From an uncultured bacterium (GTDB lineage Bacteria > Fidelibacterota > Marinisomatia > Marinisomatales > UBA1611): 64,000 nt of DNA. The DNA lies in assembly GCA_943788175.1 (NCBI GenBank), contig CALSPG010000003.1:32001-96000 (forward strand), written 5' to 3'. The notes under the pieces were generated by a model. That model worked only from the letters and a program-made list of their open reading frames with translations, did not search any database and was not told the origin of the DNA. Position 1 is the stretch's first letter; each line of letters starts with the position of its first letter. A program made the translations under genes and the position numbers. Shown here one piece after another: positions 1,967-40,955 of this stretch.

Positions 1967-2395
1967 TTAGCATTTTGAAAGCAAGTTTATAGCCTCAAGA
2001 TACCCCTCTTTACCTCTTCCTGAAATCTGCTTTATTGCCACTTCTTTAATTACAGATTTTTTTCTGAAGTCTTCTCTTGAATTTATATCACTCAAGTGCA
2101 CTTCTACAGTTGGAATATTAATAGCGGAAATAGCATCTCTAATCGCATAAGAGTAGTGAGTATATGCACCAGCATTTATAATTATTCCATTGAATTTTGA
2201 TTCAAAAGCCCAATGTAATTTGTTGATAATTTCACCCTCACTGTTTGATTGAAACCATTGAAGGTCATTTTTTAATGTATCAACTTGTTTTGTTACCCAT
2301 GAAATAATCTGTTCTAAACTTTCTTTACCATAAATCGTTGGTTCTCTTTTTCCAATTAGGTTGAGATTAGGACCATTTATTATTAAAAATTTCAT
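1967..2395 (-). CDS. aroQ: 3-dehydroquinate dehydratase type II
   Basis: INGPNLNLIGKREPTIYG, NAGAYTHYS, VEVHLS. Confidence 0.96.
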   Translation of the reverse strand: MKFLIINGPNLNLIGKREPTIYGKESLEQIISWVTKQVDTLKNDLQWFQSNSEGEIINKLHWAFESKFNGIIINAGAYTHYSYAIRDAISAINIPTVEVHLSDINSREDFRKKSVIKEVAIKQISGRGKEGYLEAINLLSKC

Positions 2396-2430
2396 TTTAT
2401 AATAATTTAAAAGATTCTTTTAAGATGAGA

Positions 2431-3465
2431 TTATCTACATTCTTGACTAATAGTTGCCTCACCAATTTTATTTAGAATAATAAACTTTAATTTCCCTTTG
2501 ACAAATTTTTTATCCCGTTTGATAAGGGATAATAATTCTTCGCTGTTTATTTTTTTTAATTTAGGGAGTGGAAGGGTCCGAATTAATTTTTCTAGAACGT
2601 TAAATTGCTTTTCATCTAACTTTTTAAGTTTAAAGGAAACATATCCTGCGCAGAGCATTCCAAATGCTACTGCTTCACCATGTCGTAATGTATTAAAACC
2701 AAATTTTAACTCTAGAGCATGACCGATGGTATGCCCAAAATTCAAAATTCCTCGAATTCCATTATCAAATTCATCTTTTGATACGATATCTGCTTTTAGC
2801 TTACAACAAATTTCAATAGCTTCTGAAAAAGGAAATGCTGGGATATCTTGAACCCAAAGTGAAATTTTTTCAAAAAACTCCTTATCTAAAATAGCACCAT
2901 ACTTTATTATCTCTCCTAGGCCAGAAATTACTTCCTCTTGTGAAAGGGTAGCTAAAAAATTTTGATCTATAAACACTCCTTTTGGTTGATATATTGCTCC
3001 AATTAAATTTTTACCCCTGTCTATATTAATTCCAGTTTTACCTCCAATTGATGAGTCAACCATTGATAATAGTGTTGTAGGAATTTGGAAATATTTAATA
3101 CCTCTCATAAAGCTGGAAGCAATAAAACCAGAAACATCACCAACGACTCCTCCACCCAATGAAAGGATACACGTTTTTCGATCACAACCTAAATCAATCA
3201 TTTGACTTATTGCTCTATTGTATTCGTTTATACTTTTTGCTGCTTCTCCATTTGGCAACGTAATATAAGAACAGTCAAATCCTGAACAGATTAGATTGCT
3301 TTTAAGATCATATCCGAATAGTTCCATCAATTTATATTGCGATATAATTATCCATTTTTGTCCATTATTATATTCGGATAATAACGATGGAAGGCTGTTT
3401 TTTATACCAGGTTCAATATTTATGTAATATGAACGATCTCTAAGATTAACTTTATACTTTTTCAA
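2431..3465 (-). CDS. aroB: 3-dehydroquinate synthase (true C-terminus probably reaches 2397 across a 1-nt indel)
   Basis: LGGGVVGD, PTTLLSMVDSSIGGKTG, LNFGHTIGHALE, HGEAV. Confidence 0.95.
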   Translation of the reverse strand: MKKYKVNLRDRSYYINIEPGIKNSLPSLLSEYNNGQKWIIISQYKLMELFGYDLKSNLICSGFDCSYITLPNGEAAKSINEYNRAISQMIDLGCDRKTCILSLGGGVVGDVSGFIASSFMRGIKYFQIPTTLLSMVDSSIGGKTGINIDRGKNLIGAIYQPKGVFIDQNFLATLSQEEVISGLGEIIKYGAILDKEFFEKISLWVQDIPAFPFSEAIEICCKLKADIVSKDEFDNGIRGILNFGHTIGHALELKFGFNTLRHGEAVAFGMLCAGYVSFKLKKLDEKQFNVLEKLIRTLPLPKLKKINSEELLSLIKRDKKFVKGKLKFIILNKIGEATISQECR

Positions 3466-3964
3466 CTTTTATATTTTTAATTATTGTTTTACAAATATCA
3501 TCTAACGATTTATTATCAGTAATGACTGTATCGTTTGCAGACTCAAAAAAAAGTAATTTTCTTTCTTCATAAATAGCTTTTAGCGATTTTTTAATATTTT
3601 TATAATCAATTAAAGGTCTATCCATATTGATATCATTTGATAATCTTTTTTTTAACGTTGATAATGATGATTTTAAATATATTGTATAACCTTTATTTTT
3701 TAAATAGTTTCTATTTTCTTTTGCTAAAATACTTCCACCTCCACAAGAAATAACACCATCACCGCGTATTTTTTTTAATGATTCTTTTTCAATTTGTCTA
3801 AAATATTGCTCGCCTTTTTTTTTAAAAATTTCATTTATTGAAATTCCTTCACTATCTACTAGCATACTATCAGTATCAAAAAATGGCATATCCATATATT
3901 TTGATAATCTTTCCCCAACTGATGATTTACCACTACCCATCATTCCTATCAAAAATATTTTCAT
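3452..3964 (-). CDS. aroK: Shikimate kinase
   Basis: IFLIGMMGSGKS, DTD, FRQIE, SCGGG, DRPL. Confidence 0.95.
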   Translation of the reverse strand: MKIFLIGMMGSGKSSVGERLSKYMDMPFFDTDSMLVDSEGISINEIFKKKGEQYFRQIEKESLKKIRGDGVISCGGGSILAKENRNYLKNKGYTIYLKSSLSTLKKRLSNDINMDRPLIDYKNIKKSLKAIYEERKLLFFESANDTVITDNKSLDDICKTIIKNIKVEKV

Positions 3965-5124
3965 TAATATTTAGCGGATGCTTTTAAATGAGCTCGTAAT
4001 TGTTTCATAGAATCGCCACCAAATTTTTCTAAAATTACATCAGCTAATACAATACACATCATGCTTTCGGCTATGATGGACGCAGCTGGAACAGCACAGG
4101 AATCAGTTCTTTCTTTGTGAGCATCTTTTTTTTCTTTTGTATGAATATCGATAGACCTTAATGATTTAATTAATGTAGGAATAGGTTTCATAGCAATTTT
4201 CGCAATTATTGGCATAGCATTACTCATTCCACCCTCAATTCCGCCAGCATTATTTGAGAAGCGTTTATAATTTTTACCATCCCATCCGATTTCATCATGA
4301 ATTTCACTTCCGAATTTTTCTCCTGAACTTAAACCTTGCCCAATTTCTATAGATTTAAAAGCATTAACACTCATCAACAGTGAAGTTATTTTTGATTGCA
4401 GTTTTCGATCCCATTGTGAGTAAGAACCCAAACCATAAGGTAGTCCTGTTGAAAAAACTTCAAAAACCCCACCGACTGAGTCACCATTTTGTTTTGCTTG
4501 ATCGATAATATCAATCATTTCACTTTCTTTGTTTTTATCTAAACATCTTAATGGAGAATTATCGGCTAAATCATTGATTGCATTTGCAGTCATGCTTTTG
4601 GGTATGTCTGATGTATCAGTAATATTGTGAATTTGAACCACTCTGCTTGCAACATTTATTCCTATCTCATTTAATAATTTTCTACATACAGATGCAAGCG
4701 CAACCCTCATCGTTGTTTCTCTAGCGCTTGATCTTTCTAAAACATTTCGTATGTCATCAAAACCAAATTTTTCAACACCTGCAAGATCAGCATGTCCAGG
4801 ACGAGGGAGTGTCACTTTTTTAGGTTTTTTTTCAGGCACTCCAATGGTCATTTTATCTTTCCAATTTTCCCAGTCCTTATTTCTAACTATCAAACCAATT
4901 GGTGATGCTATAGTTTCACCAAGTCTTATACCTGACCAGATTTCCACTTGATCTTTTTCAATTTTCATCCGTCCACCTCGACCATATCCCATCTGTCGCC
5001 TACCAAGCTGAATATCGATGTACTCTTTTTCGATTTTTAATCCAGCCGGAATTCCATCAAGTATGCCTAATAATCCTCTTCCATGGGATTCTCCAGCAGT
5101 TAAAAATTTTATTTTTGTAAGCAT
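3964..5124 (-). CDS. aroC: Chorismate synthase
   Basis: TAGESHG, PRPGHAD, ERSSARET, NNAGGIEGG. Confidence 0.97.
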   Translation of the reverse strand: MLTKIKFLTAGESHGRGLLGILDGIPAGLKIEKEYIDIQLGRRQMGYGRGGRMKIEKDQVEIWSGIRLGETIASPIGLIVRNKDWENWKDKMTIGVPEKKPKKVTLPRPGHADLAGVEKFGFDDIRNVLERSSARETTMRVALASVCRKLLNEIGINVASRVVQIHNITDTSDIPKSMTANAINDLADNSPLRCLDKNKESEMIDIIDQAKQNGDSVGGVFEVFSTGLPYGLGSYSQWDRKLQSKITSLLMSVNAFKSIEIGQGLSSGEKFGSEIHDEIGWDGKNYKRFSNNAGGIEGGMSNAMPIIAKIAMKPIPTLIKSLRSIDIHTKEKKDAHKERTDSCAVPAASIIAESMMCIVLADVILEKFGGDSMKQLRAHLKASAKY

Positions 5125-5903
5125 AAGTGTTTCTCTAAGGTAGTTTTAATTATTTTAAAATTAATATGTTCATCGACATTTTCACCAAGCCAAATATTTA
5201 AAGATGCAATTCCTTGAAAAATAAGCATATCAAGACCACTGATGGTTCGGGCTCCTAATTTTTCGCATTGTCTTAACCACTTAGTTTTTAGTGGGTTATA
5301 TATCGTATCAATAATAATATGGCTATCATTGACTTCTATTTTAGAAGGTATTTTATGTTCATATCGTCCCATTCCTAGCGGTGTGCAGTTTATGATAATT
5401 TTGGGATTAATATTTTTACAAGATATTCCTCTTTTTAAAATCCAATTCTCCAATTTAATTTTATTTTCAAGATTTCTATTTTCTACTGATATAGATTCAG
5501 CGTTTCCTTCAATGAGTGCAAAAGCAATGGCGTACGCTGCTCCACCAGCTCCAATAATTAAACACGACTTGTTTTCGATATCAACTTCGTTTTGTTTGAG
5601 AGCATGTAAAAAACCAATCCAATCAGTATTATAACCTTTACTATTGTAAACGCAGTTTACAGCTGTTATTTCTCGTGCATAAACATCAAGATATTTAAGA
5701 TCCTTTATAATAATATTTTTATGCGGGATAGTTACGTTGTATCCATCATAATTATTTGTGTTTACAAAATTTTTGATTTGATATGGGAAAACATTAATTT
5801 TTTCATAAGAAGCATCTATCTTAAGTTGTTTTATAATTGTTGTGTGAAGTAGTGGACTAATGGTTTGACTTACAGGGTTTCCAATTACTGCAAACTTCTT
5901 CAT
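5109..5903 (-). CDS. aroE: Shikimate dehydrogenase
   Basis: IGNPV..SP, NVTIPHK, AVN, GYNTD, GAGGAA, NCTPLGM. Confidence 0.95.
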   Translation of the reverse strand: MKKFAVIGNPVSQTISPLLHTTIIKQLKIDASYEKINVFPYQIKNFVNTNNYDGYNVTIPHKNIIIKDLKYLDVYAREITAVNCVYNSKGYNTDWIGFLHALKQNEVDIENKSCLIIGAGGAAYAIAFALIEGNAESISVENRNLENKIKLENWILKRGISCKNINPKIIINCTPLGMGRYEHKIPSKIEVNDSHIIIDTIYNPLKTKWLRQCEKLGARTISGLDMLIFQGIASLNIWLGENVDEHINFKIIKTTLEKHLCLQK

Positions 5904-7150
5904 TTTACTAGCATTTTTATTTTATTGAAAAAATCTGGAAATGATATATCTACGCAATCATAATTATCCAGTATTGTATTGCCTTCAGCAACCAGACCTG
6001 CAATAGTAAAAGCCATCGCAATTCTATGATCATTGAAAGTGTTTATATTGGCTCCTTTTAATTTTGTAGGCCCAGTTATTGTCAACCCGTCTTCAAACTC
6101 TTCAACACATGCGCCCATTTTTCGGAGATTAATCACTATTGCTTTAATTCTGTCTGATTCTTTTACTCGTAGTTCTCTTGCACCTTTTATCATTGTTTTT
6201 CCAATTGCCTGAGTTGCAATAACGGCAAGCATTGGTATTTCATCAATTATACTCGGTATCTTACTTTCTTTAATATGAATGCCAAGTAACTTTCGTTGTT
6301 TGATTGATATATCATTCACTAATTCGCCAGCTACATTTTTTCCATTTTTCAGATTTATATCTACTCCCATTGACTTAATTATATTAAAAAATTCAAATCT
6401 AGTGGGGTTTGATAATATTTTTTTTAATATTAAGGTTGATTTTGGCAATATTGATGCTGCTCCTGCAAAAAAAGCTGCGGATGATGGATCTCCAGGTATT
6501 TCAATATTAAGTGGTCTGAGAGCATGAATTGGAGGTATAAGACAAATACCATTATTTGCTTTCTTAATAGTTACGCCAACATTTTTCAGCATTATTTCTG
6601 TATGGTCTCTTGATAATATAGGTTCATGGTAGTAAGTAGGCTTAGTTGCGGTTAAACCTGAGAGTAAAATTGCAGATTTGACTTGCGCGCTTGAAATTTT
6701 ATTTTTGTATTTAAAACCAGTTAATACACTTTTTTTGATTATTATTGGTGCAAGACTATTAATGCTTTTTATATCGACACCTCTTTCAAAAAGGGGTTTG
6801 ATTATTCTCTCCATTGGTCTGTTTGAAAGAGATTTATCTCCTATTAAAGTAGCATTTATTCCTTTGCTTGCTAATAACCCGCAAAGCAACCGCATAGAAG
6901 TACCTGAATTACCACAGTCAAGCTCTTTTGAAGGGCTAGAAAATGTATCTCCTTTTATAAGTTTAACATTATTTAGACCATTTTTTATAGATATGCCACA
7001 AAGTTTTAGGCAATATTCTGTTGATTGAACATCTTTACCATCTGATAAGTTTTTTATAGTCGAAATTTGTGGTGAAAGTGATGCAACCATCAGTGCTCTG
7101 TGAGATATCGATTTGTCCCCAGGGAGATTGATTGAACCTGTAATAGTCAT
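5900..7150 (-). CDS. aroA: EPSP synthase (3-phosphoshikimate 1-carboxyvinyltransferase)
   Basis: PGDKSISHR, DCGNSGT, SAQVKSA, RDHTE, RVKESDR, DHRIAM. Confidence 0.96.
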   Translation of the reverse strand: MTITGSINLPGDKSISHRALMVASLSPQISTIKNLSDGKDVQSTEYCLKLCGISIKNGLNNVKLIKGDTFSSPSKELDCGNSGTSMRLLCGLLASKGINATLIGDKSLSNRPMERIIKPLFERGVDIKSINSLAPIIIKKSVLTGFKYKNKISSAQVKSAILLSGLTATKPTYYHEPILSRDHTEIMLKNVGVTIKKANNGICLIPPIHALRPLNIEIPGDPSSAAFFAGAASILPKSTLILKKILSNPTRFEFFNIIKSMGVDINLKNGKNVAGELVNDISIKQRKLLGIHIKESKIPSIIDEIPMLAVIATQAIGKTMIKGARELRVKESDRIKAIVINLRKMGACVEEFEDGLTITGPTKLKGANINTFNDHRIAMAFTIAGLVAEGNTILDNYDCVDISFPDFFNKIKMLVK

Positions 7151-8499
7151 TATTGTTTTCTTAAACAGTCAGCGATTAGAAATGCTAATTCTATTGCTTG
7201 ATTTGCATTTAGTCTTGGGTCACAGTGAGTGCGGTATCGATCTTTTAAGTCTGAATCAGAAATTTTATCTAAACCACCCGTACATTCTGTTACATTTTGT
7301 CCCGTCATTTCAAGGTGGATTCCTCCTGGATGAGAGCCTTCAGCTTTATGAATCTCAATATTTGACTTTACTTCGCCTAAAATATTCTCAAACCTTCTAG
7401 TTTTTACTCCTGATTTATTTTTTATTGTATTCCCGTGCATTGGGTCACAAGACCAAATCACATTTTTGCCTTCTTTAGTTAATGTTTTGATAATTTTAGG
7501 AAGATACTGTTCAACCTTGTTATACCCAAAGCGTGTAATTAAGGTTATTTTGCCTGATTCATTTAAAGGGTTTAGCGTATCTATTATTTTTAATAGAGAC
7601 TCAGTATTGGTTTTTGGTCCACACTTTATACCAATTGGGTTCTGAATTCCTCGACAAAATTCAATATGGGCACTATCAATAAATCTAGTTCGATCGCCAA
7701 TCCACAAAAAATGTGCTGATGTATTATAAGTATCTCCCGACGTTGAATCTGATCTGGTTAGTGCTTCTTCATATGGAAGTAATAAGGCTTCATGACTGGT
7801 ATAGTATTTCACACTTCTAAGTTGAGGCGTATTGCTTGAATTAATACCTAAAGCTTCCATGAATTTTAAACTTTTCTGAATTTCCTCAGCTAAATGTCCA
7901 TATCTTTCACCTTGAGAACCGCCTTTAACAAACCCCATATTCCAAGATTGTACATGTTTTAAATCTGCATAGCCTCCGTCTGCAAAAGCTCTTAGGAGGT
8001 TCAAGGTAGATGCAGCTTGAGAGTATGCTGTTAGCATTCTATCTGGATCAGGTGCTCTTTTTATCGAATCAAATTCAATACTATTAATTATGTCGCCAGC
8101 ATAACTAGGAAAGCTTTGACCATTTATTGTTTCGAACTCACTTGATCGGGGTTTAGCAAATTGTCCAGCCATTCTACCAACTTTTATAACTGGTAGTTTA
8201 GTGCTTGATGTTAGAATAACTGCCATCTGAAGTAATACTCTAAAAGTGTCACGAATATTATCAGCATTAAATTCCGAAAAACTCTCTGCACAATCTCCAC
8301 CTTGCAATAAAAATCCATTGCCGTCACTCACTTCTGAAAGGTTCTTTTTTAAAGCGCGTACTTCGCCGGCAAAAACCAGAGGTGGAAAGCTTTTAAGTGT
8401 TTTTTCAGTAGCTCTTAATTTTTCAGCATCTCTGTACGTAGGAACGTGCTTTGCTTTAAAATCCCGCCAACTGTTTATTCTCCATTGGTTCATTTTCAA
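7150..8499 (-). CDS. DAHP synthase class II (plant/actinobacterial type)
   Basis: LLQGGDCAESF, RMAGQFAKPRS, SHEALLLPYE, WIGDRTR, DPMHGNT, CDPRLN. Confidence 0.95.
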   Translation of the reverse strand: MKMNQWRINSWRDFKAKHVPTYRDAEKLRATEKTLKSFPPLVFAGEVRALKKNLSEVSDGNGFLLQGGDCAESFSEFNADNIRDTFRVLLQMAVILTSSTKLPVIKVGRMAGQFAKPRSSEFETINGQSFPSYAGDIINSIEFDSIKRAPDPDRMLTAYSQAASTLNLLRAFADGGYADLKHVQSWNMGFVKGGSQGERYGHLAEEIQKSLKFMEALGINSSNTPQLRSVKYYTSHEALLLPYEEALTRSDSTSGDTYNTSAHFLWIGDRTRFIDSAHIEFCRGIQNPIGIKCGPKTNTESLLKIIDTLNPLNESGKITLITRFGYNKVEQYLPKIIKTLTKEGKNVIWSCDPMHGNTIKNKSGVKTRRFENILGEVKSNIEIHKAEGSHPGGIHLEMTGQNVTECTGGLDKISDSDLKDRYRTHCDPRLNANQAIELAFLIADCLRKQ

Positions 8500-9218
8500 A
8501 CTCCTTCAGAGTCGTTTTTAACTTTTTCAAAAGATTCTTTTAATCTGCGTATTGTGTTTTTTGTATATGGATTGTAAGATTGCAGATCTGAATATAGTTG
8601 CCAGCTATCATTGCAGGTCTGCTCAACGAGGTTCAATAAATCTCTAAATCCTTGAGTATCTAGATTCGTTTTAGAAATACCAAATTCCTTCAGAGTTCGT
8701 CCAAGAAAATGAGTGATACCTTGAGTATTAGCTGCAAGCTTATCATGTTCTTCTGGACTCATATCTAACACATTAATATTTTGATCATTGAAGTATTTTT
8801 TCCAAAAAGGATATTGGTTTTGGCAGTCTCTCGTTCTATGCATCATCATTTTTAACTTCTGGTTGGTTAAAATAGAATCAGGGCCAAACATTGGGTGTGT
8901 TGATATTATTCCAATATTTTTAGGGAGGTGTTTTAACATTACTCTTGATGTATGAATTTTAACAGAACAAACATCAATGATGGTCCTATCACCTTCAATA
9001 ATTTTCGATATTTTTTGAATTAATTTTTCAAATTGGTGTATTGGAATAGCTACAAAAATAATCTTTTCCTCAAGTACTTTTTCTAAAGTAAGAAAGTTGA
9101 CATTTCTTGTTGAGACTCCTTCTTCAATATCATGAACTTTTAATGAAAAACCTTTTTGAAGAATATTTGCTAATACTTTACCAAATCTTCCATATCCAAT
9201 TATTCCGATAGTAGTCAT
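8496..9218 (-). CDS. tyrA: TyrA family prephenate/arogenate dehydrogenase, plant-ADH-like
   Basis: GIIGYGRFG, DVCSVK, THPMFGP, EEHDK..A.TQ.ITH. Confidence 0.9.
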   Translation of the reverse strand: MTTIGIIGYGRFGKVLANILQKGFSLKVHDIEEGVSTRNVNFLTLEKVLEEKIIFVAIPIHQFEKLIQKISKIIEGDRTIIDVCSVKIHTSRVMLKHLPKNIGIISTHPMFGPDSILTNQKLKMMMHRTRDCQNQYPFWKKYFNDQNINVLDMSPEEHDKLAANTQGITHFLGRTLKEFGISKTNLDTQGFRDLLNLVEQTCNDSWQLYSDLQSYNPYTKNTIRRLKESFEKVKNDSEGV

Positions 9219-9787
9219 TTTAAGTCGAGCTTACAAACACCAATAAACAAGGTTAGGTTGTGTTTTAAATCATGTATACTATTTTCTAATATCTCTAAGC
9301 CATAAATGTCTGCACATGCTCTATTTGCTATTACAGCTGCCGTGTTAGGTAACTTTTTTTGGCTTAGACGACGAGCAGATTCTGCAGTGTCATCCTCTTC
9401 GATCAATGGCCTAGTCCAAAAATTTTCACTTAAATAATTTTTGCATTGTCTTAATGCTTGCCTATGAGAATGAATTTGAGTTATATCTCCAATTTTTGTA
9501 CCACTTAAACCTAACAGGTTTTGTTCGATTGGAATATGGAACATTTCAATTATTTTGGCTTTATGAAGTGCAAGAGCCTCTACGCTTTCAATAACGACAC
9601 CTCCTTGTGCATTCTCCATTGCGAATATCCCAAAATCTGTTTTTGAATTTTCAATACTATCTAAAACCGAATGAGATGATATAAGATAGTCAATCTCATA
9701 ATCATCGATGCCATGATTTGAAGCAAATTTAACTGCTGCATCTTCAGAAAAACTCCCTTTTGCTCCTTGTATACCTATTTTTTTCAT
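9215..9787 (-). CDS. pheA: Prephenate/arogenate dehydratase, catalytic domain only (no ACT domain)
   Basis: IQGAKGSFSE, MEN, SHRQALRQC, HD...NLTLF; 190 aa. Confidence 0.85.
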   Translation of the reverse strand: MKKIGIQGAKGSFSEDAAVKFASNHGIDDYEIDYLISSHSVLDSIENSKTDFGIFAMENAQGGVVIESVEALALHKAKIIEMFHIPIEQNLLGLSGTKIGDITQIHSHRQALRQCKNYLSENFWTRPLIEEDDTAESARRLSQKKLPNTAAVIANRACADIYGLEILENSIHDLKHNLTLFIGVCKLDLK

Positions 9788-9819
9788 ATTATTGTATTTA
9801 ATTGTTTGGAATGATTTAT

Positions 9820-9851
9820 AAAAAAAAACCTCGAAAATTTTCGAGGTTTTT
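9820..9851 (-). terminator. Intrinsic terminator of the putative Phe/Tyr attenuator
   Basis: Perfect 28-bp palindrome aaaaacctcgaaaattttcgaggttttt (9824-9851); the minus-strand RNA has a U9 run after the GC core, ending 32 nt before the pheA start. Confidence 0.85.
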
Positions 9852-9880
9852 AAAATTAATTTATAACTTGTTAAGAAAAA

Positions 9881-9949
9881 TCAATAAACCTCTTGGGATC
9901 TAAAAAAATATTTAAAATAGTAACTAAATATTAAGAATGCTCTATTCAT
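9881..9949 (-). CDS. Putative Phe/Tyr attenuation leader peptide MNRAFLIFSYYFKYFFRSQEVY (22 aa)
   Basis: ATG at 9949, TGA 9881-9883; 5 Phe + 4 Tyr; 3' end contains GAGGUUU, complementary to AAACCUC in the terminator 5' arm. Confidence 0.75.
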   Translation of the reverse strand: MNRAFLIFSYYFKYFFRSQEVY

Positions 9950-9984
9950 ACCTTAAATTTTAATAATAATATTAAGATTAACCA

Positions 9985-10263
9985 CTATTTTTTTAATTTT
10001 TGGATATCTTTTGAAATTAAAAAAATTGTTTTAAGTAATACTTCAGCGTGCTCAGGTTTAATTTTATTTTTATAGTCGTTTGATATCCGTTTAATTATAG
10101 CATTTTCTCTCGAGCCGTCATCAATAGGGATTTTATAGGTAGATTTTGATTCTCCAATCTTTTTTGATATATCAAATCTTTTAGCAAATAATTCAAAAAT
10201 TTGATTATCAATGTCATCAATTAAATTTCTTAGCCTGATAATGTTATCTATTTGTTCATTCAT
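9985..10263 (-). CDS. Stand-alone chorismate mutase (AroQ/CM type II fold)
   Basis: LRNLIDDIDNQIFELFAKRF...IG..K......D..RE; context next to pheA/tyrA. Confidence 0.88.
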   Translation of the reverse strand: MNEQIDNIIRLRNLIDDIDNQIFELFAKRFDISKKIGESKSTYKIPIDDGSRENAIIKRISNDYKNKIKPEHAEVLLKTIFLISKDIQKLKK

Positions 10264-10337
10264 AATGTAAAATTAGTTTTGTAGTCAAATCTAATTTACT
10301 AATTCAAAAAATAGTATGATTAATATTAAATATCTTT

Positions 10338-10367
10338 TTGAATTAATACTCTAACTGTAATTATATT
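10338..10367 (+). promoter_or_regulatory. Putative sigma70-type promoter for the TPP riboswitch/TonB receptor transcript
   Basis: TTGAAT-18 nt-TATATT; the implied start site falls at the 5' end of the aptamer. Confidence 0.4.
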
Positions 10368-10372
10368 ATATC

Positions 10373-10456
10373 TTCTCTAGGGGTGTTGTATTGTTTTACA
10401 ACTGAAATTAAACCCTTATAACTTGATCTGGATAATACCAGCGGAAGGAACGAGGC
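10373..10456 (+). ncRNA. TPP (thiamine pyrophosphate) riboswitch aptamer
   Basis: AGGGGU/ACCCUU (P2), GUUGUA/UACAAC (P3), CUGAAA (J3/2), ACUUGAUCUGGAUAAUACCAGCGGAAGGAA matching the P4-P5 core. Confidence 0.92.
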
Positions 10457-10457
10457 T

Positions 10458-12798
10458 ATGCGCATACTCTTTTTACTTTTTATTTTAATTCAATCACTTA
10501 CAGCTAATTCAATTCCTATTTTTGGAATTGTTAAAGATAGTTTACTCAATCGAACATTGGAGGGGGTAAACGTATTATCAGGTAGTAATGGTACTAGTAC
10601 TGATAAACAGGGCGTATTCATTATTGATGCTGAAACAGAGTATTTAACCATTAGTCATATTGGGTTTAAAACAGTTGAAATTCTTGTTAAGGATACTATT
10701 TATGTCAATTTAATTCGAGATATTATTTTATCAGATGAAATAGTTATTGTTTCTTCATTATCAGAACAGTCACTTTTTAATTCTTCATCAAGCATTGCAG
10801 TTATAGATCAAAATGATTTAAAAAATCATAATTTTGATCATTTCCAAGATGCTATAAATAGTATACCAAATTTAAATTTTGCTGGTGGCACAAGTAGACC
10901 TAGATATTTTCAAATAAGAGGCATTGGCGAAAGAAGTCAGTTTTTTGGTGAAGGTTCACCGAATCATTCTGTTAGTTATGAACTTGATGGTATTGATTTA
11001 AGTGGTATTGGAATGATTGGAGGGACTATTGATGTAAATAATATAGAAGTTGCGAGAGGCCCTCAATCAACAGTTTTTGGGAATAATTCAATAGCAGGAG
11101 CGATTAATATATCTATCTAATGAGCCTGAAAGAAAAAAAATAATCAAGCTTAACTACAAGACTGGTAATGATAATTACAAATATACCGGCATTACTGCGA
11201 ACCTTAAAGCATTAGGAAATTCATACTTTAGATTTAATTTTTACAAAAATTATCAAGATGGCTTCAGAAAAAATAAATTCCTAGGAGTTAAAAATACTAA
11301 TAAAAAAGATGAAACGTTTTTTAGGTTTAAAATGAATTTTTCAATTAATGAAAATATTCTGCTTAAAAATACATTTTTATTATCAGAAATGGATAACGGA
11401 TATGATGCTTGGGCGCCAGATAATAATAAACAATTTTTCACGTATTCAGACCAACCGGGAAGAGATTATCAAAATACTAAGGCTATCGCTTCAAAATTGA
11501 TACTGAAAAATAAAAACTATAATACGCTGCTAAGATACTCCTCTTCTTCATCTGATATAATTTATAGTTATGATGGAGATTGGGGTAATAATGCTTTCTG
11601 GGAAAATCCAAGCACATATAATTTCGATTCTTATTATTACGGTTATTATTCGCCTTATCAATATTTCGATAAAACAACCAGGGCAAAAAACAACACAACC
11701 TCAGAGCTTCGTTTTTACAATAAAAAATTATCAATTGGCGCATACTTTAAAAAATTAGAAGAAAAAGATGATGGAGAAGGTTATTTATTTGGTGGCGAAG
11801 GAAATGTTTCTAGAGCCAGCAGTGATTACAACATCGATATTAAAGCGGTTTATGCTCATTTAAATTCTGATTTGAATGACAAAATTAGCTTATCTAACAG
11901 TTTTAGGTACGAAATGAATGACGTTAATTACATTGGTAAATCATTTGGATATTCTAACGATACAATACCAACCGTTCGCTCAAATAAAGATTTTAAACTA
12001 AATGGTTTTAAAAGTAGTGTTGCCTACAAAATAGGTTCAGATTTTAAACTTTTTGCTCATGCATCATATGGCTATAAAACAGGTGGCGTTAATCAACAGC
12101 CATATGTTTCATCTCAAAACCGTATCTACAATCCAGAGTATTTAGGTAATTTTGAAATAAGTTTAAAGCATAGTACAGATAAAATTTTCACAAATATTTC
12201 TTATTTCTACAATGATAGAATAGATCAGCAAATTTCTATATCTGCTCAGCAAAATGTAAATGACCCTAATAGTTTTTATTATTTTACAGCTAATAGTAAA
12301 AATGGAGGCTTTTCAAGGGGTATTGAATTTGACTTGAATGCGCGAGTATCTGAAAAGCTATTTTTGAAAACTTCTTTTGCATATTTAGATACTTGGACAA
12401 GCAAATTTTCTTATACCGTTAATAATAATGATGTTCAATTTGGAGGCGCTCGCCAGGCAGCTATGGCACCAAAAATTACGTCGTCAGCATCAATTACTTA
12501 CAATTACAAATCAATGTCTTTTACGTTGAATCAAAGTCACAAAGGTGAATATTATTTCTCTGATAGCCACAACTTTAAATCAGAAGATTATGCTTTAACA
12601 AATATTTCTATTAATAAAATTTTAGATAACTTTAAAATTAGTGTTTGGGCAAAAAATATTTTTGATCATAAATATGCTGTAAGAGGATTTTATTTTGGCT
12701 TAATCCCGCCAAATTATGAAGACCAGCTATGGGTTAGTTATGGTGAGCCAGCACAATATGGTGTCTCACTTGATTATAATTTTAATGATTCTTTTTAA
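10458..12798 (+). CDS. TonB-dependent receptor, probably thiamine-related uptake; split by one frameshift near 11110-11120
   Basis: Signal peptide, N-terminal domain, plug (PNLNFAGGTSRPRYFQIRGIGE, RGPQSTVFG), barrel ending GVSLDYNF; downstream frame open from 11116 into the 11332 ORF. Confidence 0.88.
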
Positions 12799-16908: not shown

Positions 16909-18279
16909 ATGACAAAAAACACTAAATTCAAGTCTATGCCGTCAGTTACATCGATTATAAATTCGATTAATAACGATTTAGGTGTTCATGAGAACTTTTT
17001 AAAAGATTTGATTAATCAAGAATTAGATGAATTGAGATCAAAAATAATTAATGAGAATTATGATTTTGAAAAAGATGTAGTTATCAAAAAAATCGTTACT
17101 GCAGTGACGGAAAAAGCTAGATCATCTTTTGTTAATATTATTAATGGCACTGGTATTGTGCTGCACACGGGGTTTGGGAGAGCTCCATTCGCAGGTTCAC
17201 ATTTAAAAAATATTGCAGATAAAATTAATGGCTATTCAAATCTCGAGTTTAATCTAGAAAAAAATATGAGGGGAGACCGTCAATCACACATTGACAAGCA
17301 CATTGCCTCTATTTGTGGAACTGAAAATTCAGTCGTCGTCAATAATAATGCTGCGGCTCTTTTATTAATTATTAATTCTTTATCAGAAAATGCTGAAGTT
17401 ATCTGTTCAAGAGGCCAAATTGTTGAAATTGGTGGTTCATTTAGAATATCTGAAATTATTAAAAAAGGAGGTGGCATTTTAAAGGAGGTTGGATCTACCA
17501 ACCGCACACATCTTGAAGATTATGAAAAAGAAATTTCTAAGAATACTAAACTATTGTTATGGGTTCATACAAGTAATTATATCATGAAAGGTTACACTAA
17601 AGAAGTGCCTTTAGAAGATATAGTTTCTATAGGTAAAAAATATAAAATTCCTGTAGTGGCAGATTTAGGTAGTGGCTCTTTTATAGATATGAGTAAGTTT
17701 GGTATTCCTTCTGAAATCCCAGTTTCTGAAATAGTAAAAAAAGGTCCTGATATCACACTTTTTTCAGGGGACAAAATGCTTGGAGGGCCGCAATCAGGAA
17801 TAATACTGTCTACAAAAATTTTAATAAACATTATCAAGTCAAACTCAATCTATCGCACGGTAAGATGTGATAAAATTACAATTGCCATTTTAGATGATAT
17901 TCTTCGTAGTTATAAAAAAAATGGATTTTTAAAATCTAATCTCGCTTTAATGTTATTGACGAAAAATAGAAAAACCTTAAAAAAAATGGCTGAAAAAATA
18001 ATAAATAGTGTTCAGGAGTATAAACTTCGGACTCTTGGTCTGACCATTGAGAATTCTATGGTTGAGGCTGGAAGCGGTTCTTTACCTGAAAAAAACCTTA
18101 AAAGTGTTACTCTGAAATTTTCGCCTAAGGACATGTCCATTGATGTTCTATCAAAATCATTTAAACAATACAAGGTTCCAATTATAGGTTATATCAATAG
18201 AAATTCATTTTTCATAGACCTTAAAGCTGTTTTACCTTCTCAAAGTTTTCATATAATTGATGCTATAAATAAAGTTTAA
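16909..18279 (+). CDS. selA: L-seryl-tRNA(Sec) selenium transferase
   Basis: INGTGIVLHTGFGRA, VNNNAAA, SRGQIVEIGGSFRI, DLGSG, SGDKMLGGPQ (PLP lysine). Confidence 0.95.
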   Translation: MTKNTKFKSMPSVTSIINSINNDLGVHENFLKDLINQELDELRSKIINENYDFEKDVVIKKIVTAVTEKARSSFVNIINGTGIVLHTGFGRAPFAGSHLKNIADKINGYSNLEFNLEKNMRGDRQSHIDKHIASICGTENSVVVNNNAAALLLIINSLSENAEVICSRGQIVEIGGSFRISEIIKKGGGILKEVGSTNRTHLEDYEKEISKNTKLLLWVHTSNYIMKGYTKEVPLEDIVSIGKKYKIPVVADLGSGSFIDMSKFGIPSEIPVSEIVKKGPDITLFSGDKMLGGPQSGIILSTKILINIIKSNSIYRTVRCDKITIAILDDILRSYKKNGFLKSNLALMLLTKNRKTLKKMAEKIINSVQEYKLRTLGLTIENSMVEAGSGSLPEKNLKSVTLKFSPKDMSIDVLSKSFKQYKVPIIGYINRNSFFIDLKAVLPSQSFHIIDAINKV

Positions 18280-18281
18280 TT

Positions 18282-20141
18282 ATGCAGCAAATTGTTATTG
18301 GAACTGCTGGGCATATTGATCATGGTAAAACATCTTTGGTAGAAGCTCTTACTGGAACCAATACAGATACTCTTTTACAAGAAAAAAGTAGAGGAATTAC
18401 AATAGACCTTGGGTTTGCTTATTTAAATGAGCAAATCACCATTGTCGATGTCCCAGGTCATCAAAGGTTTATTAGAAATATGGTGGCGGGATCGTCAACT
18501 ATTCATATTGGTTTATTAGTAATAGCTGCTGATGATGGTGTAATGCCACAAACTTTAGAGCATCTCCATATTTTGAATAGTTTGTCTATTCTAATCGGAA
18601 TTACTGTAATAACAAAAATTGATGGGGTTGATAACGAATGGATAGACCTAGTTATATCTGATATTAAAAAGATTCAAAAAGATACTATTTTTCAAAATAG
18701 TCGTATTTTTAAAGTAGATAGTTTATCTCAGAAAGGAATAGGTGAATTAAAGAATTCTATCATTTCTATATCTCAGTCATTAAATGTTCTTGATAACTCA
18801 AAATTTTTTAAAATGTATGTTGATAGAGTGTTTAATAAAAAAGGATATGGTTCTATTGTAACAGGAACTATTAAGAGTGGTAATATATCAAAAGGTGATA
18901 GTATAGAAATATTACCAGAGAAAATAACAGCAACAGTTAGGGGTGTTCAAACTCATGGTGGTGAAGTTACCAATGTCAAATTTGGTGACAGGGCAGCTTT
19001 AAATCTATCAAAAGTTGATATAAATGTATTAAAAAGAGGCTCAATTTTATCTGCCATTGATAAGATAATAGTAACGAATTATTTAATAGTGAACTTAACT
19101 ATGTCCAGACATACGCTTTGGACAATTCAAAACAATCAGCGAGTAAGAATTCATTTAGGCACTGCTGAAATTTTAGCTAGAATTAATCTTCATATAAAAA
19201 AAATTGAACCTGGCAAAACTTGCAATGCAATTTTAAGATTAGAGAAAAAATGTGGAGTAACACTCGATGAGTTATTCGTGGTTCGTTCATACTCCCCAAT
19301 GGAAACAATTGCTAGTGGTGTTGTACTTGATACAAATGAAAGAATAAAAAAAGATAATCTTGGAGAAATACCAGTTGATAAAGTAGCAAGGTTTAAATAC
19401 ATGATATCTCGTAGATTAAAAAAGCCGCTAACAGTTAAGCAGTGGAGTGAAAAATATTTTCTATCTGAAGTTGAAATACTTAAAAAAATAAAACTAATAA
19501 AAGCAAAAATAACAAAGAGTGATTTAGTTTACTTTTTTGATGATTTAAACTCAGTGAAACAATCGGTGGTTAAATATGTTAAAAAAAAAACTAATCATGA
19601 TTTATTTCATAGTTATGTTGAAATGAATAATTTAAAACTCAATTTGAATTTATCTTCTGATTGGGCTAAATATGTTGTCAATGATTTAGTAAATGAAGAT
19701 TTATTAACTTTTAAAAACGGTAAAATAAAAATTAAAAATCAAGATTTAAAAATTGATAAAAAAATAGCAATTGACATTGATAATATAAAAAACTTGATAA
19801 ATAATAGCCCGCTGAAAATTATATCCATTAATGAATTAGTAAAGAAATCAAAATTAAATCCAAAATACGTTAAAGATTTGGTGTTTATGTTAAATGATAG
19901 AAAAAAAGTAGTTATTATTAATATGGATATTGTGACTAGTGCTGATGCTTTTGGTGCCATAATATCAAAATTGCAAATTTATTTTAGTGGTCAAGAATTA
20001 TTATCTGTTTCGAGTTTTAAAGAAATATCTATGCTTTCACGAAAAAATGCGATTCCAATGCTAGAGTACTTTGATATAAATGGTTACACTATCAGAAATG
20101 GAGCAAATAGGAAAAAAGGGCCTTATTTTTTTGAGCAATAA
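18282..20141 (+). CDS. selB: Selenocysteine-specific elongation factor
   Basis: GTAGHIDHGKT, RGITIDLGFA, DVPGH, TKID; C-terminal SRKNAIPMLEYFD winged-helix motif. Confidence 0.95.
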   Translation: MQQIVIGTAGHIDHGKTSLVEALTGTNTDTLLQEKSRGITIDLGFAYLNEQITIVDVPGHQRFIRNMVAGSSTIHIGLLVIAADDGVMPQTLEHLHILNSLSILIGITVITKIDGVDNEWIDLVISDIKKIQKDTIFQNSRIFKVDSLSQKGIGELKNSIISISQSLNVLDNSKFFKMYVDRVFNKKGYGSIVTGTIKSGNISKGDSIEILPEKITATVRGVQTHGGEVTNVKFGDRAALNLSKVDINVLKRGSILSAIDKIIVTNYLIVNLTMSRHTLWTIQNNQRVRIHLGTAEILARINLHIKKIEPGKTCNAILRLEKKCGVTLDELFVVRSYSPMETIASGVVLDTNERIKKDNLGEIPVDKVARFKYMISRRLKKPLTVKQWSEKYFLSEVEILKKIKLIKAKITKSDLVYFFDDLNSVKQSVVKYVKKKTNHDLFHSYVEMNNLKLNLNLSSDWAKYVVNDLVNEDLLTFKNGKIKIKNQDLKIDKKIAIDIDNIKNLINNSPLKIISINELVKKSKLNPKYVKDLVFMLNDRKKVVIINMDIVTSADAFGAIISKLQIYFSGQELLSVSSFKEISMLSRKNAIPMLEYFDINGYTIRNGANRKKGPYFFEQ

Positions 20142-39247: not shown

Positions 39248-40955
39248 ATGATAAAAATTTGTTTTATATTAATTTTTAAATCGTCTTTTATATTTGGTTT
39301 TCAGGCTAAAGCAATTGTTGATAAGAATAATGTTACTCTTGACGATGTTATAAATTTTAAAATTGAATTAGAAAGTACAATTTCGTTTGGAGATCTCAAT
39401 GCCAGTAGTATCTTTAAAGATTTTGATATAATTAGTGGCCCGAGTCAGCAAACCACTATGCAGTGGATTAATGGTCGAATGACCAATTCAAAAATCATGT
39501 CTTGGATGATTTCTCCAAAAAAAGTAGGCAGGTTAATAATACCTTCTTTAAATATATCGATTGGAGGTGACAAAAATATCCACAAATAAAATTATAATCC
39601 TGGTGGAAAAATCTAAATTAAGTAAGAAAGACTTAGACGTTTTTATTTCAGCAGAATTAAATAAAGATAAAGTGTATCTGGGAGAGCAAATTATACTGAC
39701 TTATAAAATATACAGGAAAGTGGAGTGTTCAATTGAGCCATTTGAAATTCCGAAATTTGCAGGGTTTTGGGCTGAAGAAATTTTTAGGCCAAATCAGATC
39801 AAGTTTAAAAATATTTCTCTTAACGGAGTTAACTATCAGGAGGGTACTTTATATAAGGTAGCATTATTTCCTATTTCAGGTAAAGAGCATGTTTTACAAC
39901 CTTTATCTGTAAAAGTGAAAAAACAAAAAAATAAAAAAAGAAACAATAGAGACCCATTTTTCAATCCTTTTTTTGACTCTTTTTTTACAGAAACCGAAAC
40001 GAAAATATTAAAGACCCAGGAGAATAAAGTGGCTATTAAAAAATATCCGGGTCTAAGGCCTAGTGGGTTTACTGGTGGAGTTGGGAGTTTTAAAATTTTC
40101 ACTGAAACTGACGTTGATTCGACTATCGTAAATGAAGCCATAACATTTAAAATATCAATTAATGGAACTGGTAATATGGGTTTGTTTACTCTACCTGAAA
40201 TTAAATTTTCTGACGAAATCGATCAATTTTCACCCAAGGAGCGATTTGAGAAAAATGTATTTAGAGATGAATTTTCTGGTAAAATGACATGGGAATACAT
40301 CTTGGTTCCTAGGCTACCAGGGAAATTAACTATCCCTCCAATAGCACTTACTTATTTTAATCCTAAACTTGAAAAATGGCAAAGGTTGACATCAAAACCA
40401 CAGTCTGTTTTTGTTAAAAAACTAAGTAAGAACTATTTAGTAAATAATGGACTTACCAAGAGAGATATTGAAGTGATTGGCAAAGATATTAAATACATCC
40501 ACATGGGTAACGTTCAGTTCTCTCCAATAATTCCGCATTCCTTTTCTTATGCCTTTTATATCTACATATTAAGTGTCTTGATTTTAATTTCACCTTTATT
40601 AGCTAAATATGTAATTGGTTATAATCTAGATAGATTGCCTGGAAAAATAAAAAATAGTGCATTGAAAAAAGCTATTAGATCTATTGAAAATTATTCTTAT
40701 GATGATTCTTTTGATAATTCAAAAATTATTTATGTTTTTTTAAAAGATAGATTTCAACTTTCCAATGCTAACCTTGATACTATGTCTATCAGCGACCTCC
40801 TTAAAGATTTTATACCTAAAGAACTATTAAACGAGCTTATTGAAGTAGTAAAAATTTGCGATAGAATGTCTTATGGGTTTGCATCGATTGACGATAAGAA
40901 AATAGTAAGCCAAAATATTTCTAAAATACTTAAAAAAATTGATGAAACATGTTAA
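39248..40955 (+). CDS. batD: BatD family protein; split by a frameshift in an A5 run near 39572-39576
   Basis: GPSQ.T.MQWING, VYLGEQ.ILTY, GFW.EE, F.GGVG.F, I.GTGN, YFNP; the two ORFs join as GDKISTNK if one A is removed. Confidence 0.85.

Follow-up and report, generated by a model that had tools for sequence, protein, structure and literature searches.

Attenuators of the pheL-pheA type are built, according to PMC11802643 and PMC3082878, from a leader open reading frame (ORF), a set of cognate codons and an antiterminator that competes with a terminator. We describe here a candidate attenuator of this kind on the minus strand, at positions 9949 to 9820, of a 64,000-nt stretch of DNA from an uncultured bacterium of the Fidelibacterota lineage UBA1611 (contig CALSPG010000003.1, positions 32,001 to 96,000; the whole stretch is called the window). 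As in the pheL-pheA system of E. coli and other gamma-proteobacteria, a short ORF with a run of cognate codons and a competing antiterminator and terminator lie directly upstream of pheA. The two systems share no detectable homology of sequence or structure, and they differ in several respects. The pheL leader carries Phe codons only and governs pheA alone, whereas the leader of the window carries Tyr and Phe codons (and Trp codons in relatives) and would govern nine genes, including the whole shikimate pathway. Unlike in pheL-pheA, no anti-antiterminator (1:2) hairpin was found, and the prephenate dehydratase (PDT) encoded by pheA has neither a fused chorismate mutase (CM) nor an ACT domain.

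The nearest functional precedent that we could document is aroR of Corynebacterium glutamicum. There a leader peptide with a Phe-Tyr-Phe motif precedes the aroF operon and acts through ribosome stalling (PMC11802643, citing Neshat et al. 2014), and the same source reports a response to Phe and not to Tyr (PMC11802643). Like the leader studied here, aroR is a mixed aromatic leader peptide ahead of a DAHP-synthase operon. It belongs to another phylum, and compared with aroR the run of the window type is longer (five or six aromatic codons in seven) and the operon adds pheA, tyrA and all the common-pathway genes. The trpL-type attenuators of E. coli, C. glutamicum and Sinorhizobium share the leader-peptide logic, and relatives among the Marinimicrobia do carry Trp codons within the run, whereas the leader of the window has no Trp codon and is followed by no trp gene. 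In mycobacteria, leaderless short polycysteine ORFs form the first cistron of their operons and act as Cys-responsive attenuators, as described in bioRxiv 10.1101/834739. Set against that account, the leaderless start proposed here is deduced from the spacing between the -10-like hexamer and the ATG only, and both the amino acids and the phylum differ.

No Rfam family reached its gathering score over the attenuator in the window, nor in the loci of 10 relatives. In a search of 401 nt, Phe_leader (RF01859) scored 24.4 bits against a gathering score of 55 and His_leader (RF00514) 23.5 bits against 49; such sub-threshold matches were rejected as terminator look-alikes to unrelated families. Trp_leader and the leader-peptide attenuator Bacteroid-trp (RF01692) gave no gathering-score match in the window or in the 10 relatives. 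T-box and other riboswitch classes had none at the attenuator, and the only riboswitch of the window is a TPP riboswitch on the other strand. Binding of a TRAP-like protein was also considered from the sequence and set aside, the leader of the window having five UAG/GAG triplets, irregularly spaced and forming no regular array. Bacteroid-trp has been described as a cis-regulatory motif of Bacteroidetes (PMC2864571).

A literature search, which left most subscription journals outside, found no published description of a leader peptide or attenuator for Marinimicrobia/SAR406. The element would thus appear to be a new sequence family of a textbook mechanism, in a phylum apparently without an earlier report. 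The Marinimicrobia (SAR406) are abundant marine bacteria, most of them uncultured, and to our knowledge essentially nothing is known of their gene regulation. A concrete regulatory RNA that is conserved across the phylum and recognisable from its sequence would annotate dozens of metagenome-assembled genomes (MAGs) and would extend leader-peptide attenuation to another deep bacterial lineage. It would also place a single sensor ahead of the whole shikimate pathway and of the Phe and Tyr branches, in a genome whose PDT lacks the ACT feedback domain.

Leader, antiterminator and terminator in the window and its relatives

The locus upstream of pheA very probably encodes a ribosome-mediated (leader-peptide) transcription attenuator of the aromatic amino-acid operon. 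Its parts in the window are the following.

9957-9985, minus: promoter-like boxes (inferred), namely a -35-like GTGGTT (9985-9980, overlapping the CM stop), a 17-nt spacer and a -10-like TAAAAT (9962-9957)
9881-9949, minus: leader ORF of 22 codons plus TGA (9883-9881), with its ATG at 9949-9947, MNRAFLIFSYYFKYFFRSQEVY (sequence reading)
9902-9922, minus: putative regulatory aromatic run YYFKYFF, codons 10-16 (sequence reading)
9843-9892, minus: antiterminator hairpin of about 50 nt with the base strands GAGGUUU (9892-9886, codons 20-22) and AAACCUC (9849-9843) (folding)
9820-9851, minus: intrinsic terminator, a 12-pair stem (9851-9824) and U9 ending at 9820 (terminator scan, fold)
9788-9819, minus: spacer of 32 nt to the pheA ATG at 9787 (sequence reading, promoter scan)

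A preliminary description made from the window alone had reported a 22-codon ORF with six Phe/Tyr codons in YYFKYFF, the GAGGUUU strand just before its stop codon and a terminator with U9 ending 32 nt before pheA. All three were found as described, the leader agreeing in coordinates and sequence and the terminator scan calling the 12-pair stem. It had also cautioned that AT-rich DNA favours Phe and Tyr codons by chance. Tyr or Phe fills six of the seven codons at leader positions 10-16, and among the 390 ATG ORFs of 15-30 codons on both strands of the window two, the leader included, have at least six such codons in a seven-codon run, so that the richness of the leader is by itself unusual and not decisive. 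The other such ORF, at 39957 on the minus strand (MGLYCFFFYFFVFSLLQIKVVKHALYLK), is most likely a chance ORF because it lies antisense inside the ORF at 39561-40955.

The terminator reads AAAAACCTCGA-AAAT-TTTCGAGG; nine T follow, the last of them at 9820, and its energy is -14.2 kcal/mol. It is the sole terminator-like site in 9600-10400, where shuffled sequences lead one to expect 0.1, and is called on the minus strand only. The AAACCUC at 9849-9843 belongs both to the base of the antiterminator, as its 3' strand, and to the 5' arm of the terminator. Against its own terminator arm GAGGTTT pairs with -9.6 kcal/mol, compared with -3.5 +/- 1.8 kcal/mol for shuffles (2 of 300 as good). The earlier proposal that GAGGUUU and AAACCUC compete with the terminator stands, with the amendment that the antiterminator is not this 7-bp base alone but the hairpin of about 50 nt from 9892 to 9843. 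When the nascent RNA was folded (nucleotides 1-114), this hairpin formed with seven of its seven base pairs. In constrained folds a ribosome footprint on the stop codon left none of the seven, and the terminator formed, whereas a ribosome with its A site on any of codons 10-15 left all seven in the nascent RNA. The spacer at 9788-9819 gave no call in a sigma-70-like promoter scan, and pheA has no evident Shine-Dalgarno sequence. A separate promoter between terminator and pheA, which the preliminary description had named as evidence against its model, is thus neither called nor expected, since 32 nt leave no room for one. The complementarity and the ORF statistics of the window are suggestive; the decisive evidence comes from the comparison with relatives.

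A profile scan with one genome per species returned 80 loci from Marinimicrobia-type or unclassified MAGs (81 sources with the window), each relative with 4 kb of flank available upstream of pheA. In 49 of the 81 sources a TrpA homologue ends less than 40 nt from the pheA start, preceded by TrpB in 47 of the 49, and there is no intergenic region. The 32 sources that do have an intergenic region upstream of pheA all contain the same design, a short ORF rich in Tyr and Phe (in some also Trp) codons, an antiterminator 5' strand laid over its last codons and a terminator. The upstream ORF, its aromatic codons and the complementarity that the preliminary description had expected in orthologous regions are thus present in 32/32. 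In each of the 29 sources whose gap measures 170 nt or more, an ORF of 17-23 codons starts with ATG (GTG in one), and the best seven-codon run contains six aromatic residues in eight of these leaders, five in 16, four in four and three in one. The distance from the leader stop to a T-run of at least six T is 44-59 nt throughout the 29. In 27 of the 29 this T-run lies 1-64 nt from pheA, and so there is no room for a separate pheA promoter. The leaders fall into about seven sequence families (for example MNYIITKNYYSSYFFFTRERVL, MKNAFYFYYFTNPWGRA, MKTSYYYFRYATDGLEDCP and MATNYYYKFFMNNGLRIRP), in which nearly everything except the aromatic run differs. A covariance model (R1) built from 15 leaders detected 26 of the 29 and three further sites (in loci L045, L019 and L027), each with an aromatic-rich ORF. 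In the window it found exactly one site, this attenuator, and in the loci of the trpBA type it found no site within 4 kb upstream of pheA.

The 29 leader peptides were aligned with the first codon of the antiterminator strand as anchor. Aromatic residues fill columns -11 to -4 in 13, 16, 15, 20, 23, 20, 23 and 27 of the 29 leaders, and columns -3, -2 and -1 in 3, 2 and 1. The aromatic run stops exactly three codons ahead of the antiterminator strand, and this spacer is fixed in all families, with TAT/TAC and TTT/TTC interchanging within the anchored columns. Counted from the strand, the last aromatic codon stands 9-16 nt upstream (22 nt in L014) and the first one 24-34 nt. Over all leaders, residues are 17.2% Tyr, 12.9% Phe and 1.6% Trp. 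At the sequence level, then, it is the meaning of the codons that is conserved, at a fixed distance from an RNA element, and untranslated sequence would not show such a pattern.

Pairing between the leader strand and the terminator arm, also raised in the preliminary description, was borne out by several lines of evidence. When the 29 leaders were folded up to the point before the 3' arm of the terminator is made, a long hairpin formed in 29/29; its 5' strand begins 8-18 nt before the stop codon and its 3' strand takes 3-7 nt of the terminator 5' arm. The base pairings change from family to family, from GAGGUUU/AAACCUC in the window to GGGUUUUG/CAAAACCC, GGGUUGGAA/UUCCAACCC, GGGUUGAGG/CCUCAACCC and UUGGGGU/GCCCCAA. 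In a duplex test, pairing of a strand with its own arm beat 95% of shuffles in 27 of the 29 leaders, and family-versus-family duplex energies were best on the diagonal for five of the seven families (a, b, e, f and g). The model-fitted alignment A6 (29 hits), which is fitted to the structure and so leans towards it by construction, had 87.4% of its cells paired and double changes in 12 of 14 pairs, values reached by 0 of 500 shuffles; with one partner slid, pairing fell to 38-54%. A plain MAFFT alignment of 15 sequences (A4) gave 85.4% paired cells and modest covariation, with two double-change pairs. The terminator was 94% paired in A4 and yet no better than shuffles, because this helix hardly varies. 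Two further MAFFT alignments, of whole and of trimmed leaders (A2 and A3), were set aside, as the families stood in different registers and the window group was misplaced. RNAalifold, unaided, predicted the terminator only, in which the window family has a compensatory C-G to U-A change. The antiterminator strand follows this change with GAGG for GGGG, and the window lineage has GAGG, CCUC and GAGG at three places that read GGGG, CCCC and GGGG elsewhere.

In the window lineage itself we compared the window with loci L001 and L002. The leader differs between them at codons 4, 7, 8 and 18, and the only change in the aromatic run is a synonymous TTT to TTC. None of the 69 paired nucleotides is variable, and one site varies in the terminator loop, whereas variable sites make up 3 of 27 nt in leader codons 1-9, 3 of 32 nt in the spacer and 17.9% of third codon positions in pheA. 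Because the paired nucleotides are invariant while neighbouring sites and third positions vary, the element is, as judged from these substitutions, under purifying selection despite having the weakest energetics of all. The weak version of the window would presumably still switch.

Proposed mechanism and competing explanations

The window has 7 nt between TAAAAT and the leader ATG. In 26 of 31 loci a TAnnnT hexamer is set off from an in-frame leader ATG by 7-8 nt, and in 19 of those 26 a TTGnnn box lies 17-18 nt further upstream, directly after the CM stop codon. Over a background of 9,500 ATG triplets from the same loci, the hexamer precedes 4.7% and both boxes 0.34%; the 32 triplets in this background that have both boxes are, for the most part, probably the leaders themselves. 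The promoter proposal draws on this cross-species conservation only. Because of the spacing of 7-8 nt, the leader is probably translated from a leaderless mRNA that starts at or next to the AUG. Family f is an exception, with 20 nt and an AAAGGA box before the start codon. As the putative boxes sit between CM and the leader, CM would lie outside the attenuated unit, as had been proposed, though transcripts from CM may also read through.

The preliminary description had suggested a logic of masking and stalling as in pheL, trpL and hisL, and the constrained folds, the 32/32 conservation and the covariation support it. Transcription would start, probably, at or next to the leader AUG, and a ribosome would translate the 22-codon leader while RNA polymerase proceeds. 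With plentiful Tyr-tRNA and Phe-tRNA, the ribosome would reach the UGA and cover GAGGUUU, the terminator (9851-9824 and U9) would form, and transcription would end 32 nt before pheA. When charged Tyr- or Phe-tRNA is scarce, the ribosome would stall within YYFKYFF, still 12-30 nt short of the antiterminator strand; the antiterminator (9892-9843) would then fold first, hold the 5' arm of the terminator and allow read-through into pheA-tyrA-aroFAECKBQ. The window switch would have to be kinetic, since the terminator is thermodynamically favoured at any ribosome position, and the antiterminator, made first, would have to persist while the polymerase crosses the U-run. The predicted default without translation is read-through. 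Judged by its codons, the leader would sense both Phe and Tyr.

Several observations weigh against this reading, besides the fitting of A6 mentioned above and the rate at which F/Y-rich short ORFs arise by chance in the window (2/390). A scan based on the E. coli sigma-70 consensus calls no promoter upstream of the leader, and the -35-like hexamer GTGGTT of the window is poor. The leader has no usable Shine-Dalgarno sequence, since just 1 nt lies between its AAGG and the ATG. Stalling at codon 16, the last Phe codon, would leave the ribosome covering the antiterminator, and the full-length minimum-energy fold of the window holds the terminator at every ribosome position tried. The antiterminator of the window, at -8.4 to -9.8 kcal/mol against -14.2 kcal/mol for the terminator, is the weakest of the 29 (the means over relatives are -18.3 kcal/mol for the antiterminator and -13.9 kcal/mol for the terminator). 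Full-length folds contain no conserved anti-antiterminator (1:2) or pause hairpin; nucleotides 8-17 of the window pair weakly with 56-64, a pairing absent from L001 and L002. Were translation to begin at a leaderless 5' end, such a hairpin might not be needed. Among the relatives, the best run of L014 has only three aromatic codons, and in the duplex matrix the diagonal is not the best entry for families c and d, since GGGG:CCCC is common to these and other families. The model R1 gives the window copy no more than 29 bits and does not detect family d (L005, L032 and L068), for which the support is the ORF and fold analysis only.

These points bear differently on the other explanations that we considered. 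The hairpin could be no more than the terminator of CM, with the F/Y ORF a by-product of AT-rich sequence and pheA served by an expression signal of its own. In its favour, the terminator is a perfect palindrome and follows the CM stop at a distance of 133 nt, and chance can give short ORFs of the window the same F/Y density (two of 390). We nevertheless regard this as extremely improbable, for the ORF, its frame, the aromatic run and the distance to the hairpin are kept in 32/32, including GC-richer sources with unrelated flanks; promoter-like boxes lie between CM and the leader; four loci of family f have a pabB-like gene and an aminotransferase upstream in place of CM; and the 1-64 nt between terminator and pheA in 27 of 29 leaders are few. 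A real two-hairpin switch might, alternatively, work without a ribosome and respond to, say, a protein, tRNA or small ligand, with the ORF being incidental. Antiterminator and terminator are the best-supported parts of the element and the leader has no Shine-Dalgarno sequence, as such a switch would have it, but the 5' part is conserved codon by codon: aromatic identity persists although TAT/TAC and TTT/TTC interchange, a start codon is never missing, and the stop codon lies in every case on the antiterminator strand or immediately behind it. Known RNA families, the T-box included, give no match at gathering score, and no structure is conserved upstream of the antiterminator, so that a switch independent of the ribosome seems very unlikely to us.

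The weakness of the window copy raises a question about this lineage alone, namely whether the copy is a decaying relic in which the terminator works, the antiterminator is too weak and expression stays at a constant leaky level. The energies given above, the lowest antiterminator stability among the 29, the degenerate -35 box and the lack of an evident Shine-Dalgarno sequence for pheA would all fit decay. A relic would not be expected, though, to have 0 variable sites in 69 paired nucleotides while neighbouring and third positions vary by 9-18%, to have a synonymous change as the sole change in its aromatic run, or to maintain the three-way compensatory change of GAGG, CCUC and GAGG, and we give this explanation a small chance. 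The ribosome-mediated attenuator is the reading that we retain.

The aromatic operon and traces of tryptophan genes

The gap between CM and pheA measures 197 nt, and the genes on both sides, all on the minus strand, are as follows.

9985-10263, minus: chorismate mutase gene, AroQ type (type II), 92 aa (Pfam CM_2, 6.2e-19)
1967-9787, minus: predicted regulated operon of nine tightly packed genes headed by pheA (Pfam)
9215-9787, minus: pheA, prephenate dehydratase (PDT), 190 aa (Pfam)
8496-9218, minus: tyrA, prephenate dehydrogenase (PDH) (Pfam)
7150-8499, minus: class II DAHP synthase (Pfam)
5900-7150, minus: aroA, EPSP synthase (Pfam)
5109-5903, minus: aroE, shikimate dehydrogenase (Pfam)
3964-5124, minus: aroC, chorismate synthase (Pfam)
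3452-3964, minus: aroK, shikimate kinase (Pfam)
2431-3465, minus: aroB, DHQ synthase (Pfam)
1967-2395, minus: aroQ, type II dehydroquinase (Pfam)

The Pfam identities agree with the nine downstream aromatic-pathway genes, common pathway included, that had been read from the window before. The GC content of the window is 30-38%, and its Marinimicrobia genome has roughly 31% GC. In the leader-bearing sources the downstream order is much the same, with PDT-PDH in 32/32, DAHP synthase in 30/32 and EPSP synthase in 26/32, and several of the missing downstream genes fall at contig ends. The pheA product is a bare PDT catalytic domain with neither an ACT domain nor a fused chorismate mutase according to Pfam. 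The closest PDTs are at most 95% identical and come from Marinimicrobia, Neomarinimicrobiota or Fidelibacterota, and nearly all of the best 120 matches listed are 186-200 aa long. Because a PDT without an ACT domain may lack allosteric feedback by Phe, such feedback is possibly absent in the clade, and the attenuator would then carry more weight.

A CM_2 gene occupies the equivalent place in 12 of the 12 relatives tested by Pfam. In L008, L025, L035, L037 and L067 the upstream gene is a pabB-like chorismate-binding enzyme together with a class IV (pabC-like) aminotransferase instead of CM (Pfam: L008 and L067), and the upstream neighbour thus changes while the attenuator persists. In family f (L008 2462-2464, L025, L035 and L037) just 1 nt lies between the end of the U-run and the TTG predicted as the start codon of pheA. 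The GGGG of the terminator 3' arm therefore occupies the Shine-Dalgarno position, and the hairpin might block translation besides transcription.

Some relatives carry what look like remains of tryptophan genes directly after the terminator. In L045 a 110-aa ORF comes after the terminator, and its C-terminal portion corresponds to the end of TrpA (Pfam Trp_syntA 170-237; tblastn residues 172-255); the sequence directly after the T-run starts like the trpE fragment of L010. The latter, a 52-aa post-terminator ORF, is across 96% of its length 100% identical to the N-terminal end of a 494-aa protein that has anthranilate synthase domains, and further proteins that match it are named anthranilate synthase component I. 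Pfam gave no match for the post-terminator ORFs of 44-52 aa in L010 and L049. Comparable beginnings, or shorter remnants, are found behind the T-run in L049, L046 and L048. The arrangement suggests that in L045 (3665-3995), L010 (3181-3494) and L049 (2851-3062) deletions have left scars in which the beginning of trpE is fused with the end of trpA immediately behind the attenuator. A 149-aa protein with Anth_synt_I_N and Trp_syntA domains (P0187) is apparently the same kind of fusion remnant.

A full-length TrpE entry of 510 aa (P0211) starts 17 residues early, with the N-terminal extension MLTALKPRDNRGFFLLK. This extension matches translation through the family c antiterminator 3' strand and terminator, as in L072 and L045, and the early start reads as a gene-calling artefact that exposes an upstream RNA element. 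At the protein level, this genome appears to have the terminator directly before an intact trpE. Trp codons occur within the run of five leaders, all of family c (L010, L049, L045, L030 and L048); the longest trp remnants are those of L010, L049 and L045, and L048 has a shorter trace. The window has no Trp codon in its leader and no trp gene among the ORFs scanned.

Since deletion scars and an extended TrpE protein would place the leader ahead of trpE, we hypothesize, as the parsimonious account, an ancestral supraoperon in the order CM, leader, trpE..A-pheA-tyrA-aro, from which the trp block was deleted in several lineages. A more far-reaching version, which we offer tentatively and hold to be somewhat doubtful, is that one leaderless Tyr/Phe/Trp leader first governed a supraoperon of about 16 genes (trpEGDCFBA-pheA-tyrA and seven shikimate genes), its codons tracking the content of the operon, and that lineages of the window type lost both the trp block and the Trp codons. 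One sensor based on ribosome stalling would then integrate three amino acids for enzymes without allosteric domains. Should both the leaderless start and a trpE link prove true, the 32 variants would form a natural series in which regulatory codons are re-tuned as the operon gains or loses genes.

Other features of the window

Five tRNAs were found in the window, with no tRNA-Sec reported among them. The genes selA and selB, for selenocysteine synthase and the Sec-specific elongation factor, adjoin at 16909-20141 (plus strand), and because the two lie together the organism probably makes selenoproteins. The TPP riboswitch (10369-10467, plus strand) scores 63.9 bits (gathering score 54.3) and lies ahead of a gene for a TonB-dependent receptor. 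This receptor is split into an ORF with the Plug domain (10458-11120) and an ORF with the barrel (11332-12798), both on the plus strand and 211 nt apart, and could be a pseudogene or the product of an assembly frameshift.

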